Below are positions 51,890 through 58,217 of a stretch of 64,000 nucleotides of DNA, piece after piece. Each line of letters opens with the position of its first letter. Positions within the stretch are counted from its first letter, which is position 1. The stretch is from Planctomycetota bacterium (GTDB lineage: Bacteria; Planctomycetota; PLA2; JAEUHO01): NCBI GenBank assembly GCA_965223505.1, contig CBDCWP010000011.1:39077-103076 (forward strand), in the 5' to 3' direction. The notes beneath the pieces are model-generated. The model was not told the origin of the DNA and ran no database searches. It saw only the letters and a list, made by a program, of their open reading frames with translations. A program made the translations under genes and the position numbers.

Positions 51890-51967
51890 TGGTCGGGGCG
51901 ACTGGACTCGAACCAGCGACCTCCTGAACCCCATTCAGGCGCGCTACCAAATCTGCGCCACGCCCCG
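51890..51967 (-). tRNA. tRNA-Pro (anticodon GGG)
   Basis: CGGGGCG acceptor stem, CCTGA-ATGGGGT-TCAGG anticodon arm, GGTTCGAGTCC T-arm, encoded CCA. Confidence 0.97.
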
Positions 51968-52734: not shown

Positions 52735-53976
52735 CTACGGGCAACAGCGTCGCAGCAGGGCCAGGTTGAGCGCCGCCACCTCGTCGTTGAAGACGTTGTT
52801 GTGGCCGTCGGTCTCGTCCGTCGCCGTCACGATGCCCGATGACTCCAGGTAGAGCACTCTCCGGTTCGACGCCATGCCCCCGAGGTCGCCGGGATCGCCT
52901 TCGCCGCCGACATCGCGAACGTCGAAGTGCGCGTCGCGCTTCCGTGCCCACCCCAGCGCGCGACTCGATCCGACATGCCGCGTCCAGGGCGCGGCCTTCA
53001 CGGCATGGTCGTGCTTCGACGACGTGAGCGCGAACTTCGTATCCGGCCACTCGGCGAACGCCGCGTACGGCGTGCCTTCGAAGTGATGCCATTTGAAAAT
53101 CGTGCGGAGCGTGCTCGATACGAAGCGGTGAACACGAAACGCGCCCTGAAGCGCAATGAAGAGATCGACCGGCGAGCTGCCTTGGTAGTCCACCGCGTCG
53201 AGCAGCGGTCGCGAGAACATGGCGCGGCTCAGCACCCGCGATCCGAAGCTGTGTCCGATGCAGATCAACTTCGTGTCCGTGTCGCGCAGCACCGGCTCCA
53301 ACACGCGATGCAGCAACCGATTCGCGGCCGTCAAGCCGACCTCGTCCGCGTCCGGCGCCTTGTTCGGGTAGCTCGCGAGATGGCCCACGCGGCCGAACGC
53401 CCAGCACGACGGCCACGTCACCGCGAAGACCAACGGCACCACGGGCGCACCCCCGTCCGTCTTCGAATGTCGGACGATACCGTCCACGACCGCGTTGATG
53501 CGCTCCACCGACAGCGCCTGCGCGTTGTTCCAACCCATCGCCACGACGAAGACGTGCGTCGGCTTCAGGCTGTCCACGTCTCGACGAACTCGCTCTTGCA
53601 GCCCTTCCAGCGCCTCTTCGCCGCGCAGGAACGCCCCGGTCGTGGGGCTCGTCTCCTCGAACTCGTTGTGCAGGAAGGCGGCCTTGCCGTTCGCATCGTG
53701 GCGTAGGATGTGCGAAACGAACATGTGACGCGGGTTGCGCAGCCGCCGCCGCAGCCATCCGCGGTACTCGTCGAACGCCTTGGCGCGCGTGTTGTAGTGC
53801 AATCGCAGACGTTTCTTGGGCGGCGCGCCGATGACTTCGCGGTGCGCCTTCTCCACGGCAACGAGGTAGCCGGGAAACGCCAGTCGTACGTCGCATTCGG
53901 GCTGTACGGCCGGGTGAAACGAGCGCTCGAGCTCGCTGTCGATGCCCAGTGCCTTCTCTCGTTCGTCGATGCTCAC
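52735..53976 (-). CDS. alpha/beta-hydrolase fold protein
   Basis: AMGWNN oxyanion-like motif, IGHSFGSR nucleophile elbow, later D and GH. Confidence 0.7.
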   Translation of the reverse strand: MSIDEREKALGIDSELERSFHPAVQPECDVRLAFPGYLVAVEKAHREVIGAPPKKRLRLHYNTRAKAFDEYRGWLRRRLRNPRHMFVSHILRHDANGKAAFLHNEFEETSPTTGAFLRGEEALEGLQERVRRDVDSLKPTHVFVVAMGWNNAQALSVERINAVVDGIVRHSKTDGGAPVVPLVFAVTWPSCWAFGRVGHLASYPNKAPDADEVGLTAANRLLHRVLEPVLRDTDTKLICIGHSFGSRVLSRAMFSRPLLDAVDYQGSSPVDLFIALQGAFRVHRFVSSTLRTIFKWHHFEGTPYAAFAEWPDTKFALTSSKHDHAVKAAPWTRHVGSSRALGWARKRDAHFDVRDVGGEGDPGDLGGMASNRRVLYLESSGIVTATDETDGHNNVFNDEVAALNLALLRRCCP

Positions 53977-54257: not shown

Positions 54258-55640
54258 GTGGCGCGACGCATCGTGATGATCGTCGGTAGGGGCGGTGCCA
54301 CCACCAAGCGCCTCAAGGCCCACCTCACGCGCCAGGGACTACAGGTGAAAACGGTCGCGGACTGCGGCACGGCGACGGAAGCGCTGGCGGAGGCGGCCGC
54401 GCGAGCCGACGAACACGAGCCGCACCCCGTACGGGCCGTCATTCTCGACGTCGAAGGCGCCGGATTCGGCGTGCAGCACTTCCGCGAGATGCTGCAGTCG
54501 GACTACCCGGGCCTGTCGGTGCTCGAGCTGCCGCCGCAAGACGCCGGGCCCGAAGACATCGGCCTCCTCGTCGCCGCGGTCGTTCAGGGCATGCGCAATC
54601 CGGACCCCGCGCGCACCGGTCCGGACGGCGAGGACTTCGAGGGCCCGCTGCACGGGTACCACTTCGAGGATCTGAGCAGCCGCAGCGAGCGCATGCTCGC
54701 GCTCTTCAACGTCATCCCGCGCGTGGCGCAGACCGACAGCCCCGTCCTCATCGTCGGCGAGACCGGGACGGGCAAGGAGCTGGTCGCGGCGGCCATTCAC
54801 CGGCAGTCGCGCCGCCACGACGGCGAGTTCTTCACGATCAACTGCGGCGCCCTGACCGAGACCCTGCTCGAGAGCGAGCTCTTCGGGCACGAGAAGGGCT
54901 CGTTCACCGGCGCGTACCGGACGAAGAAGGGCTACTTCGAGCTGGCGAGCGGCGGCACGCTGTTCCTCGACGAGCTCGGCACCATCTCCACGGCCATGCA
55001 GGTCAAGCTGCTGCGGGTCCTGGAGCGCATGGAGGTGCGGCGCGTCGGCGGCTCGCGGCTGCAGAAGGTGGACGTGCGTATCGTCGCGGCCACGAACGCC
55101 AGCCTGGAGGACGCGGTCGCCGCCGGGACCTTCCGCGAGGACCTCTACTACCGGCTCAACGTCGTCCAGCTCAAGGTGCCCGCGCTGCGCGAGCGGCCCG
55201 AGGACGTGCCGCTGTTGGCGGAGGTGTTCCGCAAGAAGTTCACCGCCGCGCAGGGTCGGACCGACATCACCGGCCTCGACTCGGGCGCGGTGCGGCGCCT
55301 GATGGCCTACCCCTGGCCCGGCAACGTGCGCGAGCTCGAGAACGTCATCGAGCGCGCGGTGATCATGTCCCAGGGCCCGATCGTTCGGGAGACCGACCTC
55401 CCCGAGCGACTGCGCACCGTCGAGAAGCGGCGCACCACGATCCCGTCGTTCGACCTCGACGAGCCCCTGATCGAGGTCGTCCAGCGGGTGCGCGAGGCCG
55501 TCGAGAAGGAATACCTCAAGCGCGTGCTGCGCCGGTTCCGCGGCCATCTGGGCCGCGCAGCCAAACACGCCGGCGTCAACCGGCGCACGCTCTACAACAA
55601 GATGCAGGCCTTCGGGTTGAAGCGCGAGGACTTCCGCTGA
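54258..55640 (+). CDS. sigma-54 enhancer-binding protein (NtrC-like; degenerate receiver, AAA+, Fis HTH)
   Basis: GETGTGKE, ESELFGHEKGSFTGA, GTLFLDE, FREDLYYRL, WPGNVRELEN, AAKHAGVNRRTLYNKM. Confidence 0.95.
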   Translation: MARRIVMIVGRGGATTKRLKAHLTRQGLQVKTVADCGTATEALAEAAARADEHEPHPVRAVILDVEGAGFGVQHFREMLQSDYPGLSVLELPPQDAGPEDIGLLVAAVVQGMRNPDPARTGPDGEDFEGPLHGYHFEDLSSRSERMLALFNVIPRVAQTDSPVLIVGETGTGKELVAAAIHRQSRRHDGEFFTINCGALTETLLESELFGHEKGSFTGAYRTKKGYFELASGGTLFLDELGTISTAMQVKLLRVLERMEVRRVGGSRLQKVDVRIVAATNASLEDAVAAGTFREDLYYRLNVVQLKVPALRERPEDVPLLAEVFRKKFTAAQGRTDITGLDSGAVRRLMAYPWPGNVRELENVIERAVIMSQGPIVRETDLPERLRTVEKRRTTIPSFDLDEPLIEVVQRVREAVEKEYLKRVLRRFRGHLGRAAKHAGVNRRTLYNKMQAFGLKREDFR

Positions 55641-56007
55641 CCCGGAACACGGCCGCGCGACCTGTCGTCGAAACGGCGTGCCACTCGCTCGTCACGACAA
55701 GCAACGGTCTTGGACGACGTGAAGGGCGGCGGGTGTGGAAAAGCCCTTGAGAAACACGTTGCGAGCGTTGGGCAGCCCCATTCCCAAGAACTGTCCCCAG
55801 CCTTCCCAACCACTTAACCAAAAGTCCGTCAAGGGGTTGGACCGTTTCTCCACGCGCATTCCACAAATCGCATAGGGCGCATCGTTCCCAATCCAAACAA
55901 CCGCGCATTGTGCACAACGATGGCGCCTCATGGCTAGAAGGGCGTAAATCCCGCGTTAATGGCCGGGATTTCGGTCACGCACGTTTTTTTTCGAAAGTGG
56001 AACGGCT

Positions 56008-56023
56008 TGGTCCGCGCGTTGCA
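56008..56023 (+). promoter_or_regulatory. sigma-54 (-24/-12) promoter
   Basis: TGGTCCGCGCGTTGCA: GG(56009-10)-N10-GC(56021-22); T-tract upstream; adjacent bEBP gene. Confidence 0.7.
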
Positions 56024-56033
56024 TCTAGCTGCC

Positions 56034-57409
56034 TGCCCTTCGAGGGCAACGATCTTTGATAGGCAAGCGCTGACGAACGGACGAGGAAACCAGTCGCTCA
56101 CCGAGGGACTGTGGCGCCGGGCGGTAGGCCCGGGATCTGCCGCTGCGTGACGTTCAAAGCGGACCCGCCCCGCGAGGGGCGGCGCGAGACGACAGCTCGA
56201 GCGGACTGGGTGCGACAGTCGGTTGCGACTCCCGATCGTGAGGGGTAATTCCCGAGCGGGGATGTCGGCGCAGCAATGTGCCGGCGGAGGGAGACAATAT
56301 CGATCTGCTTAGCGGTGGCGGCCACTTCGGTGGACGTGTTGCATTCGAGAAGATTGGGTCGAGATGTGAAGGCAGCAATGCCGGATCGGAGGATCGCGCA
56401 GACCGCCTGTGGTCTGACCCTTTGAGTGACGCGGACGGAGCGCCGCATATTCGCAAGGTGACGAACCCCAGGAGAGTTGGTGCCCCGGAGACGGGGTGTC
56501 CCACTCGCTTGATTCCAGAGACCCTGAGACCCGGACGGACAGGGACGTCACCCCGACCAAGGGTGCGAGGGGAGGCTCTGCGATTGAAAGCATGAGCCAG
56601 ATCAAGCGGGAGCAGAACTCTGAAGGGGACAAACCTCAAGAAGGGATCGACGGCCGAGATGACCCGAGACTCGTGCTCGGTGAAACGCGGTGCTGTACGG
56701 ACTCGACGCGGGAGCAAAACCCTGAAGGCGGCCTCGGTGCCGACCTTCCTCCTTCGGGGGGAGGGTCGTGTACGCGGCAACGTCAAGAGGGTACGGCCAC
56801 CGAAAGGTGGACCGATCGCGCTCGAGGGAAACCCCTTGGAGAGTGAAGCCCATGGGCGCTCCGACACGACTTGTCGTGTCGGCAGGCGCGGTGAGTAGCC
56901 GCGAAGGGGGTAGCCAAACCCCGCACGTGGCGAGTGTCGGCGGAGGGATCCGCTGGCGTGTACGCGACTCACTGTGCTGGCATGTGCCGTAGGGTGCCCA
57001 AAGTCCACGAGAGGAAGCACCTGCCGCGGCTCGCGAAGCCGGCCCTTGTGGCCGGGGGAACGGGTGGCGGCGATGCGGGGCTTCCGCGGGGTGTCCTCTG
57101 TAGGGGGGCGTAAGCGTATGGAGGGCCTTCCACCGGCTTCGGTTGGTGGAAAGGTGACGCAGCTGTGAGCCCGAAGGGCGACGAACGTCGTACGGGCCGG
57201 ACGGAAACCAATACCCGTCCTAGGCTGCTGATCCGGTGTCCTCGAAACGCCGCGTAACTCCATGAGAGGTTGCGACCACTGCCGCAAGGCGGTGCGAACA
57301 TCTGCGGGAGTTCTCAAGACTCTGAAGGACCGGAGCGATCAGGCGCCGACTCCCTCGTCAGGCTTTCTTAGCCCGGAGCATGGGAAACCATGCTCCGGGC
57401 TTTTCTTTT
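56034..57409 (+). ncRNA. candidate giant (~1.35 kb) structured non-coding RNA
   Basis: Promoter, boxA-like leader, many tetraloop helices with G-U pairs, recurring motifs, terminator; no credible CDS. Confidence 0.7.
57370..57409 (+). terminator. intrinsic terminator
   Basis: AGCCCGGAGCATGG-GAAA-CCATGCTCCGGGCT perfect 14-bp stem running into TTTTCTTTT. Confidence 0.9.
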
Positions 57410-57643
57410 GCGCTGTGCGCGCAGCCAGGCGGAGCATGGGAAACCATGCTCCGGGCTTTTCTTTTGCGCTGTGCGCGCAGCCAGGCGGAGCATGGGAAAC
57501 CATGCTCCGGGTTGGGCAGCCACAAGGGCTGCCCCTACCAAACCAACCAGCTGTAGGGGCGACCCTCGTGGTCGCCCAATGATCCGTCTTGCCTACCGGC
57601 AGTCTGGCGGAGCACGGGAAACCACGCTCTGGGCTTTTCTTTT
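57375..57643 (+). repeat. tandem copies of the terminator hairpin (56-bp period x3 plus a diverged 4th)
   Basis: GGAGCATGGGAAACCATGCTCCGGG at 57375, 57431 and 57487; variant at 57609. Confidence 0.9.
57514..57577. repeat. inverted pair of GTAG-family REP elements (REPIN-like)
   Basis: GGGCAGCCACAAGGGCTGCCCCTAC (57514-38) and GTAGGGGCGACCCTCGTGGTCGCCC (57553-77). Confidence 0.75.
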
Positions 57644-57673
57644 CGGGAGTGTGGCTCTATTGGAACAGGGCGT

Positions 57674-57855
57674 CTAGGCTCTGTTTCGAAACTGCCGTTG
57701 CTGCGCCCGGCGATCCTCTTGCTGCGCCCCGCCCGAACTCGGAACCTCGTCCTCGACGGGCACAGAGCCCGCCTGCGGCGAGAACCGCTCGTTCAGACTC
57801 GGGCTCGCATCGGTCTCCCCGGGCTCGCGACGCGGCATTTCGAAACGGAGCCTAG
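57674..57855. mobile_element. MITE-like non-autonomous element (182 bp)
   Basis: Terminal inverted repeats CTAGGCTC(T/C)GTTTCGAAA, 17/18 identical; CTAG at both ends; no transposase. Confidence 0.7.
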
Positions 57856-58217
57856 TCGCCTCACGCGCTCCCAATGGCGGCGATCACGAAGCCGCCGACG
57901 ATGATCGGCAGCATGGCCCAGACGACACCCTCTGAGGGTATGAACGCCGCTACGACGGCCACAAGCGTCGCCAGGAGGGCCATCCGAAAGCACGCCTTCT
58001 GAGCACGGCGCGCGAAGGGCCCAGGGGTCATTTCTTGCGCTTCTTCCCGCTGCTCATGCCGTTCCCCTCATTGGCCTCGGGGTCATGCTGACCATCTCGT
58101 CGAACACCTCGATCGACACGAAGAAAAGAAGCAGATTCCAATAGAACCCTACTCCCGCTTCTCTTGCCTATCGGCAGCTTTGCGGTGTCACCCTATCTGC
58201 GTTCGAGGGCGTCCGGG

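Follow-up and report, generated by a model that had tools for sequence, protein, structure and literature searches.

Very few large structured RNAs are known in bacteria beyond rRNA, RNase P RNA and introns, and several RNAs under sigma-54 control, Qrr with LuxO, GlmY with GlrR, and Pxr, are roughly 100–200 nt long and work by base-pairing or as decoys for one protein. The decoy role of GlmY is described in two articles (PMC4152352, PMC7073468). Among the large RNAs, OLE, GOLLD and ROOL each broke new ground in structural biology, and what they do is still unsolved. According to passages of a cryo-electron microscopy (cryo-EM) study, all three form homo-oligomers without protein, with A-minor contacts, kissing loops and "an unusual A-A helix", and GOLLD, said to surpass the other two in size, includes "many members exceeding 800 nucleotides" (bioRxiv 10.1101/2024.12.08.627333). 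Here we describe a locus that shares features with both groups. It lies in a 64,000-nucleotide stretch of the genome of a Planctomycetota bacterium (assembly GCA_965223505.1, contig CBDCWP010000011.1, positions 39,077–103,076 of the forward strand; hereafter the window, numbered from its first letter). The element at 56034–57409 on the plus strand encodes a non-coding RNA (ncRNA) that stands alone and is highly structured, and is neither an mRNA nor a leader nor a mobile element. A sigma-54 promoter stands at its 5′ end, an intrinsic terminator at its 3′ end and a covarying fold between them. That this is a real structured RNA gene we regard as virtually certain.

The plus strand of 56440–57365 folds at −451.6 kcal/mol (z = −5.80), compared with −385.2 kcal/mol (z = −1.92) for the minus strand (20 shuffles); for the whole 1381 nt the values are −679.9 and −579.8 kcal/mol, respectively. 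We aligned 24 full-length genomic homologues (alignment A1) and, after removing gap-rich columns, obtained an RNAalifold consensus of 342 pairs. In this consensus 91.3% of the cells pair, as against 78.8% in shuffled alignments and 38–44% when partners were slid by 1–3 columns; as the consensus was derived from the same sequences, this figure is inflated, the counts of both-side changes and the slid controls being less affected. Both-side changes occur in 229 of the 342 pairs (135.6 shuffled, 94–117 slid), and the covariation score is 0.399 (0.177 in shuffles, 0.07–0.11 with slid partners). None of 500 shuffles matched A1 on any of five measures. RNAalifold applied to 18 homologues without the window sequence (alignment A3) returned the same architecture, with 275 pairs, 173 of them showing compensatory change; of the −397.07 kcal/mol, the covariation term made up −40.61. 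When 71 environmental sequences were added, 91.7% of the cells paired among the resulting 95 distinct sequences, and 234 of the 342 pairs had two Watson–Crick types differing on both sides. The fold comprises 57 conserved helices, and at least 200 alignment columns are invariant. Invariant G-U pairs occur on the plus strand only, for example at columns 916/1083 (GU in 24 of 24 sequences) and 1181/1459 (GU in 23 of 24), and they fix it as the RNA strand.

This agrees with the first-pass annotation of the region, which had concluded from plus-strand G-U pairs and tetraloops that selection acts on RNA. The hairpins that it listed are all present: CCGCCCC-GCGA-GGGGCGG at 56165–56182, CCAC-TTCG-GTGG at 56322–56333, GGCA-GCAA-TGCC at 56371–56382 and GCCCCG-GAGA-CGGGGT at 56482–56497 were checked base by base, and the others are visible too. 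The first three of those just named lie in an expansion, flanks included, that almost all homologues lack (see below), and so are lineage-specific; the rest occupy conserved, covarying helices.

The interval of ~1.4 kb from the stop codon of the upstream gene (55640) to the terminator contains no credible protein gene. A protein-coding or dual-function gene, made up of a minus-strand open reading frame (ORF) or of short plus-strand ORFs, is one alternative, and one observation speaks for it: the minus strand has a stop-free run of 394 codons, longer than the maximum of 347 in 200 mononucleotide shuffles. The ORF in question (56154–57317, 387 aa), the only long frame in the region, has an Arg/Pro/Ser-rich translation without a Pfam match, and it is not kept in relatives, whose longest minus-strand runs include 146 (L011), 201 (L010) and 213 (L027) codons. 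No reading frame is open across all homologues. Moreover, of 4478 pairwise indels, just 417 (9.3%) have a length divisible by three, 90.7% do not, and 74% equal 1 modulo 3; column entropy by codon position (0.80, 0.85, 0.86) shows no period of three. The plus strand is purine-rich, with a GC skew of up to +0.24 and an AT skew of up to +0.28, and the long minus-strand frame is explained by this richness, which makes stop codons rare on that strand. We consider a coding function very improbable. The first-pass annotation had likewise seen no protein gene here and had named a conserved reading frame as a finding that would speak against an RNA; base pairs covary instead.

The RNA belongs, by every test available, to no described family. 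When the whole window was searched with the 4227 models of Rfam 15 at their gathering scores, only a tRNA (51893–51967) passed; this upholds the earlier view that the RNA could be assigned to no known family. At E-values up to 10, the region 55600–57900 gave 10 weak matches, all far below their cut-offs; two of these fell in the RNA body (Acido-1, 20.2 bits with a cut-off of 50; serC leader, 13.7 bits with a cut-off of 35). There was no Rfam match to OLE, GOLLD, ROOL, HEARO, raiA, 6S RNA, RNase P RNA, tmRNA, signal recognition particle (SRP) RNA, the rRNAs or group I or II introns. Published RNA motifs are normally entered in Rfam, and we found no published description in a search of the full-text literature, which covered articles but not the supplementary motif tables of RNA-discovery papers. 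The idea that the RNA replaces RNase P RNA, SRP RNA or tmRNA was rejected, all three being present on other contigs of the genome.

We then examined how widely the RNA is distributed. By blastn the RNA region is single-copy in its own genome, and of the 24 further genomes in that family 20 contain it, at 65–71% identity over ~1 kb. A covariance model of its fourth domain (R1; 157 positions, 47 pairs) was run on the 40 genomes of the order, which coincides with the class as a whole. It found exactly one match in 33 of them: 23 of 28 and 9 of 11 genomes in the two families, plus the window's own genome. Among the high-quality genomes of the class, 16 of 17 matched. In a sample of 151 genomes from the phylum, R1 found the seven class members included and two further genomes, G064 and G068, each the sole genome of its class; the remaining 142 Planctomycetota genomes of the sample had no match. 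When 185,579 species genomes were scanned for the motif, 21 loci came out, 17 of which were confirmed as homologues by nhmmer, all in metagenome-assembled genomes (MAGs) labelled Planctomycetota, Planctomycetia or Planctomycetales. The remaining four, labelled Entotheonellaceae, Verrucomicrobia, Actinomycetota and Sedimenticola, were not homologues by nhmmer and were set aside as chance pattern matches, about the number expected. As to a phage or plasmid origin, the motif scan found no viral contig and blastn no plasmid.

The gene has its own transcription signals. The sigma-54 (−24/−12) promoter, TGGTCCGCGCGTTGCA, lies at 56008–56023 on the plus strand, with GG at 56009–56010, GC at 56021–56022 and a predicted start near 56034. 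It has the exact GG/GC spacing and resembles TGGCAC-N5-TTGCW, and the other expected components, namely rpoN in the same genome, an enhancer-binding protein gene and upstream motifs, are all there. Of 26 homologous loci, drawn from two families, 25 have GG-N10-GC at one and the same place in the alignment; the sole exception is L015 (genome G013). In a separate observation on that locus, short direct repeats (…CATTCCGACAAGCACG…) stand directly upstream of the RNA, and the region looks rearranged. No sigma-70-like promoter was found in 55600–58200. Sigma-54 dependence of the RNA gene is in our view very likely.

Candidate upstream activator sites lie at 55734–55865 on the plus strand: TGTGGA(AAA) at 55734–55742, TTCTCCAC at 55846–55853 and TCCACA at 55860–55865. 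TGTGGA and TTCTCCAC motifs recur in many loci of both families at about −297, −185, −172 and −123 from the RNA start. We infer that the enhancer-binding protein encoded next door may bind them. In a crude scan of the genome, the RNA promoter was the only one of 102 sigma-54-like sites with at least three such upstream motifs, which fits a regulator with a single target. Abutting the −24 element (55980–56005) is a T8 tract followed by GTGGAAC, and homologues keep a T-rich tract and GTGGAGA there; this stretch may be a bend or a further regulator site.

The presumed activator is an NtrC-family bacterial enhancer-binding protein (bEBP) encoded at 54273–55640 on the plus strand, with Pfam matches to Sigma54_activat, AAA_lid_14 and HTH_8. 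It comprises an AAA+ sigma-54 interaction domain, a lid, a Fis-type helix-turn-helix (HTH) and an N-terminal domain of ~130 aa. Its start codon is uncertain, the ORF being open from 54099. In homologous loci, tblastn matches begin at ORF residues 51–59. The N-terminal domain had no match in Pfam or, by sequence, among Protein Data Bank (PDB) entries, where the matches are to the AAA+ part only, and no NCBIfam equivalog cut-off was reached that would give the subtype. By tblastn, the bEBP gene lies directly upstream of the RNA and on the same strand in most loci of the window's family, and its N-terminal domain occurs in 28 of the 40 genomes of the class, namely 27 of the 28 other genomes of the family and the window's own. 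We presume that, in the window's family, the bEBP is dedicated to activating the RNA gene. In genus g7, activator and RNA are ~4.5–5 kb apart, because an Hsp70 (DnaK-like) gene of opposite orientation has been inserted between them (locus L023, 1196–2905, of genome G006; also G019 and G024), with the sigma-54 promoter retained (GGCACG-N4-TCGC); in locus L012 a HEAT-repeat gene lies between the two.

At the other end, the intrinsic terminator (57369–57409, plus strand) consists of a hairpin of 14–15 bp (57370–57401) followed by UUUUCUUUU (TTTCTTTT). The hairpin, helix 57 of the consensus, covaries, with both-side changes in 12 of 15 pairs. Thus the earlier reading of a promoter at one end and a terminator at the other holds across relatives. 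These signals also bear on whether the RNA is a cis-acting leader, an intron or the RNA of a mobile element. Its large size and terminal helix are features of some introns. Against such a role, the strong terminator follows the RNA directly, and the next genes, gpsA and plsY, are on the opposite strand, convergent with the RNA gene here and in many loci. Group II introns are marked by domain V, a 5′ GUGYG, often an intron-encoded protein, and multiple or mobile copies; the present RNA has no group I or II match in Rfam, occurs as one syntenic copy per genome and has its own promoter and terminator. Neither a transposase nor a reverse-transcriptase gene is nearby, and the motif scan found no viral and blastn no plasmid copies. 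We therefore give an intron, leader or mobile-element origin as little credence as a coding one.

The transcript is probably represented in environmental data. Four studies, on marine sediment, soil, a coral reef and a salt marsh, each contributed a metatranscriptome whose contigs lie on 56037–57401, with the proviso that an RNA library can contain DNA. One metatranscriptome contig of 1269 nt matches 56061–57327 from end to end at ~91% identity and runs through the expansion, and other such contigs skip it (56147 to 56513/56518). Contigs from three metatranscriptomes end at 57360–57363. Within 55400–58100, the bins outside 56037–57492 were nearly uncovered (0.02 and 0.85, both in run X17 at 55491–55672), which we do not count as silence of the flanks. 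Summed metatranscriptome contig depth peaks in the fourth domain.

A motif scan of public metagenome and metatranscriptome assemblies gave at least 120 loci, of which 80 were fetched; the environmental counts that follow are among the matches listed. Seventy-seven of the 80 were homologues, from 62 record prefixes, and 63 of these, from 50 record prefixes, were whole contigs of at most 1135 nt, so that the contig is essentially the RNA. The 5′ ends of these 63 contigs lie in the 5′ strand of the closing helix P1 (CUGACGA…) in 39 cases and in the leader tract in 13, and only one starts further upstream, beyond the leader tract (model position 32). Of the 3′ ends, 40 lie in the 3′ strand of P1 (…UCGUCA(GGC)) and 12 extend into the spacer or terminator. 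Both ends fall on P1 in 27 of the 63, and these 27 have a median length of about 1053 nt. Because P1 is where RNA-sized contigs start and stop, the mature RNA probably falls short of the full distance from promoter to terminator. We think it rather likely that leader and terminator are trimmed off to leave a molecule with paired ends, ~1050 nt long in most relatives and ~1290 nt here (~56070–57363). Taken at their outermost clusters (5′ at the C of CUGACGA, 3′ at …CAGGC), the contig ends would give a 3′ overhang of 2 nt, of the sort produced by RNases specific for double strands, which is a weak hint.

The anatomy of the RNA, all of it on the plus strand, is as follows. The 5′ leader (56034–56064) has a variable hairpin (~56034–56048) and then, conserved, CUCUUUGA-A-ACAAG; the mature RNA probably lacks this leader. 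In P1, the 5′ strand AAGCGCUGACGAACGGA (56065–56081) pairs with the 3′ strand UCCCUCGUCAGGCUU (57351–57365), the likely mature ends being near 56070 and near 57360–57363. P1 (helix 1) is 14 pairs long, with pairing in 95.2% of its cells and a single compensatory change, from U-A to A-U; its core is CUGACGA/UCGUCAG, locus L018 has a compensated AGACG/CGUCU, and the RNAalifold run without the window sequence recovered the helix again. P1 leads through two short helices into a central wheel with five domains. Domain 1 (56099–56460; helices 4–11) includes the expansion at ~56185–56388, ~200 nt that are missing from 22 of the 24 aligned genomic homologues; L004 has a shorter one. Since most homologues lack it, the window RNA is ~200 nt longer than the norm: primary transcripts measure ~1.12–1.19 kb in the family as a rule, ~1.35 kb in the window and 1.12–1.38 kb over the full range. 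The earlier proposal of a stand-alone RNA of ~1.35 kb is therefore right about the gene, and its length has to be corrected for the lineage-specific ~200 nt and for a mature form that is probably shorter.

Domain 2 (56466–56628; helices 12–20) has the base CCCC[AGG]AGAGU … ACUCU[GAA]GGGG, a GAGA tetraloop hairpin (56482–56497) and, in its apical loop, the palindrome GACGUC (~56548–56553), present in 79 of the 95 sequences, with the ACGU core in 93. Domain 3 (56635–56843; helices 21–30) contains modules M3 and M4 of the recurrent loop described next and a conserved GNRA (GAAA/GAGA) hairpin at 56797–56810. Domain 4 (56848–56995; helices 31–37), the most conserved part and the basis of model R1, reads GAAGCCCAnGGnCGCUCC … GGUAnCCAAACC … GUGYCGUAGGG. 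Domain 5 (57003–57330; helices 38–56) contains modules M7–M10 and a conserved GCAA hairpin (57277–57294). The conserved GNRA loops of the RNA are thus GAGA, GAGA/GAAA and GCAA. A scan of unpaired columns for at least four consecutive covarying pairs gave one pseudoknot candidate (columns 50–53/1040–1043), which was rejected as an alignment-shift artefact.

A single internal-loop module recurs ten times in the RNA. It consists of a helix ending in C-G, a symmetric 3×3 loop (5′-A-N-G/5′-G-N-A) and a helix starting with R-Y. At the outer opposed position, the 95 sequences have A.A or G.G and hardly any mixed forms (M1, 87 A.A and 8 G.G; M9, 87 A.A and 6 G.G; M10, 37 A.A, 36 G.G and 21 C.A), the inner pair is G.G in 88–95 sequences, and the middle pair is free. 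An invariant AGAG/CUCU helix adjoins several modules (helices 13, 39 and 44), and the pairs of helix 13 never vary, which is unusual for a helix otherwise free to covary. Domains 2–5 each start with a module after a purine-rich linker ending in AA or AC (GAAC, UGAA, AAA), a shared beginning that suggests that the wheel may have grown by duplication. A kink-turn is defined by a bulge of three nucleotides in one strand and, after it, G.A and A.G as tandem sheared pairs. We rejected this identity for the module, because its loops are symmetric and a G.A/A.G register would break the invariant AGAG/CUCU helix.

What might such modules do? In the Rev response element (RRE) of HIV-1, G-G and A-A are interchangeable. 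Sections of one article describe how G-G and G-A pairs widen the major groove of the RRE where Rev binds, and how the RRE assembles several copies of Rev (PMC4488727). By analogy, the ten modules would most likely serve as a series of binding sites, and the RNA would organise or sequester the protein, or protein oligomer, that binds there. Overall, the explanation that we favour is as follows. The −24/−12 promoter requires an enhancer-binding ATPase, and sigma-54 RNA polymerase in all likelihood starts near 56034 under an activator that is encoded directly upstream in the window's family and appears to serve the RNA promoter alone. Transcription ends at the hairpin and U tract of 57369–57409, and the RNA folds so that its ends form the closing helix, followed by the two short helices and the five-domain wheel. 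As the contig ends suggest, trimming of leader and terminator would leave a stable RNA with paired ends. The mature RNA would then act in trans as a signal-induced, long-lived docking scaffold, with the ten modules as its working surfaces. We put this explanation forward tentatively, at a little under an even chance for the whole, and protein docking as the function somewhat more tentatively still.

Several observations weigh against this explanation. The N-terminal domain of the bEBP was found in none of the 11 genomes of the second family with this query, though the promoter and the upstream motifs are there. The expression evidence consists of assembled contigs, which have no strand and whose ends are fuzzy by a few bases, and an RNA-library source of the RNA-sized contigs labelled as metagenomic was not confirmed. 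Genome G014, which is 90% complete, keeps the bEBP gene and gpsA 480 nt apart with no RNA between them; the RNA is thus dispensable there, widespread but not indispensable. No partner protein was found: the neighbours of the RNA gene vary outside the window's family, and gene context therefore yields no candidate. The best-known protein sequestered by GGA-rich RNAs is CsrA, and CsrA (PF02599) was not found in the 92%-complete genome. A CsrA sponge of the CsrB/RsmZ type is unlikely for that reason and was rejected; the GGA strands, moreover, lie in internal loops between helices and not in hairpin loops. Finally, internal-loop motifs that recur are also a means of RNA–RNA packing, both in ribosomal RNA and in assemblies made of RNA alone; taken by itself, the module is thus no pointer to a protein.

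The main rival is as follows: the RNA may form an RNA-only quaternary assembly (a dimer, ring or cage) like those of OLE, ROOL and GOLLD, with the purine loops, the GNRA loops and the palindromic loop as contacts. The conserved GNRA loops and ten homopurine loops would suit it, as would the lack of any partner protein gene that travels with the RNA. The near-invariant, self-complementary GACGUC loop would lend itself to kissing, and two of its variants are the compensated AACGUU. However, 14 of the 16 sequences that depart from GACGUC break the six-base palindrome, so that covariation gives a kissing contact no support, the two compensated cases being too few to decide. Furthermore, ROOL and GOLLD are described, in the same passages of the cryo-EM study, as RNAs of phages and prophages (bioRxiv 10.1101/2024.12.08.627333), whereas the present RNA is chromosomal and single-copy, has a dedicated regulator, and was seen neither on a viral contig (motif scan) nor on a plasmid (blastn). 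We judge an RNA-only assembly possible and clearly less probable than a protein-docking scaffold.

The same architecture could also be that of a large ribozyme, in which the five-domain wheel and terminal helix form a catalytic core. Size, a multi-domain wheel, many invariant unpaired purines and paired termini recall RNase P RNA, group II introns and rRNA, and the at least 200 invariant columns and 57 covarying helices would be in keeping with catalysis. On the other hand, no Rfam 15 ribozyme family matches; exon-like flanks and an intron-encoded protein are lacking, and there is one copy per genome. The repetition of an identical module is more like a docking element than a single active site, and G014 has lost the RNA without visible replacement. 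We regard a ribozyme as improbable.

A regulator of transcription in the manner of 6S RNA, which would hold back RNA polymerase, or a holoenzyme with another sigma factor, in a stressed or resting state, appears slightly less probable again. The RNA is abundant and looks stable, its ends are paired as in 6S RNA, and its synthesis from a sigma-54 promoter would be independent of the main sigma factor. No 6S RNA (RF00013) was found in the genome or the window, a non-detection that means little, because the model found 6S in only 5 of 14 control genomes. 6S RNA is a rod of ~180 nt with a large central bubble. The present RNA is six times that size, and it has a five-domain wheel and no large central bubble flanked by long irregular helices. 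The protein-docking scaffold stays our preferred reading of the function.

The surroundings of the gene hold further features. The terminator is duplicated in tandem at 57374–57511 (plus strand; period 56 nt, 2.5 copies, 100% identical), each repeat unit of 56 nt consisting of the hairpin, the U tract and a 20-nt spacer. A fourth, diverged copy lies at ~57607–57645, and blastn against the own genome gives matches at 57562–57587 and 57684–57719. The repeats are a recent local duplication, a multi-terminator array ahead of the convergent gpsA. A nearly perfect hairpin of 77 nt (57509–57585) stands between terminator copies; it attracted spurious matches to microRNA precursor models on both strands (35.5 and 33.2 bits; cut-off 100) and looks like a REP-like or bidirectional terminator element. 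TGTGGA-type motifs and a single hairpin are still present in the gap left in G014 (L198, G014:C1 4497–4975), a natural knockout of use in comparative work. An ORF of 413 aa (52735–53976, minus strand) without a Pfam match runs divergently from the activator gene and is overlapped by a longer frame of 622 aa on the same strand; the gene call is ambiguous. Outside the window's family, the second family and G064 have mutually different flanks around the RNA gene, with genes for a WYL protein, BipA, an aminotransferase, a desaturase and response regulators. Elsewhere in the window's own genome, contig C13 has dense sigma-54-like promoter matches on both strands at ~111–221 kb, many of them TGGCAC-N5-TTGC, which suggests a large sigma-54 regulon island.

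It is about an even call whether the RNA founds a new class of kilobase-sized RNA machine. Such a class would belong to a class-level lineage and two sister lineages, have its own sigma-54 pathway and rRNA-like trimming, and use homopurine modules to nucleate a ribonucleoprotein (RNP) or an RNA-only particle; it would be the largest structured bacterial ncRNA outside the ribosome and introns. The gene is a single-copy chromosomal one kept in nearly every member of the class, with RNA-library contigs from four habitats. Its dedicated signalling input is an experimental handle that other large RNAs lack, and the repeated, sequence-defined homopurine-loop module offers structural studies and the hunt for partners a definite target. 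A transcript of the trimmed form (~1050–1290 nt) can be made in vitro for cryo-EM without culturing. More generally, environmental RNA data still hold prominent, unannotated RNA-sized species that can be traced to genomes.

In comparison with known systems, the likeness to the HIV-1 RRE is one of analogy only: both place purine–purine pairs within a helix and have several such sites on one RNA, but sequence, organism and context are unrelated, and the present RNA uses a symmetric 3×3 loop (A.A/G.G, N.N, G.G) ten times. With rRNA and RNase P RNA it shares an architecture of domains around a central loop that the paired 5′ and 3′ ends close off, with mature ends in or next to that helix, as well as purine richness, GNRA loops and recurrent non-Watson–Crick loop motifs; unlike them, to which it is not homologous, it is conditionally expressed through sigma-54 and dispensable in at least one relative. 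OLE, ROOL and GOLLD, and also HEARO and raiA, resemble it in having a very large covarying structure, no coding capacity, high abundance where measured and a lineage-restricted distribution. Compared with OLE, ROOL and GOLLD, the present RNA has a sigma-54 promoter, an activator gene, a terminator and ends that are apparently trimmed, and it is larger; at ~1050 nt for the mature form, set against the "many members exceeding 800 nucleotides" quoted above for GOLLD, the first-pass annotation was right to call it longer than OLE, ROOL and typical GOLLD RNAs. Finally, it has in common with Qrr/LuxO, GlmY/GlrR and Pxr of Myxococcus a −24/−12 promoter for an RNA, an adjoining activator gene and an RNA as the output of signalling, whereas it is 5–10 times larger than those RNAs and has 57 conserved helices and an rRNA-like wheel of domains.

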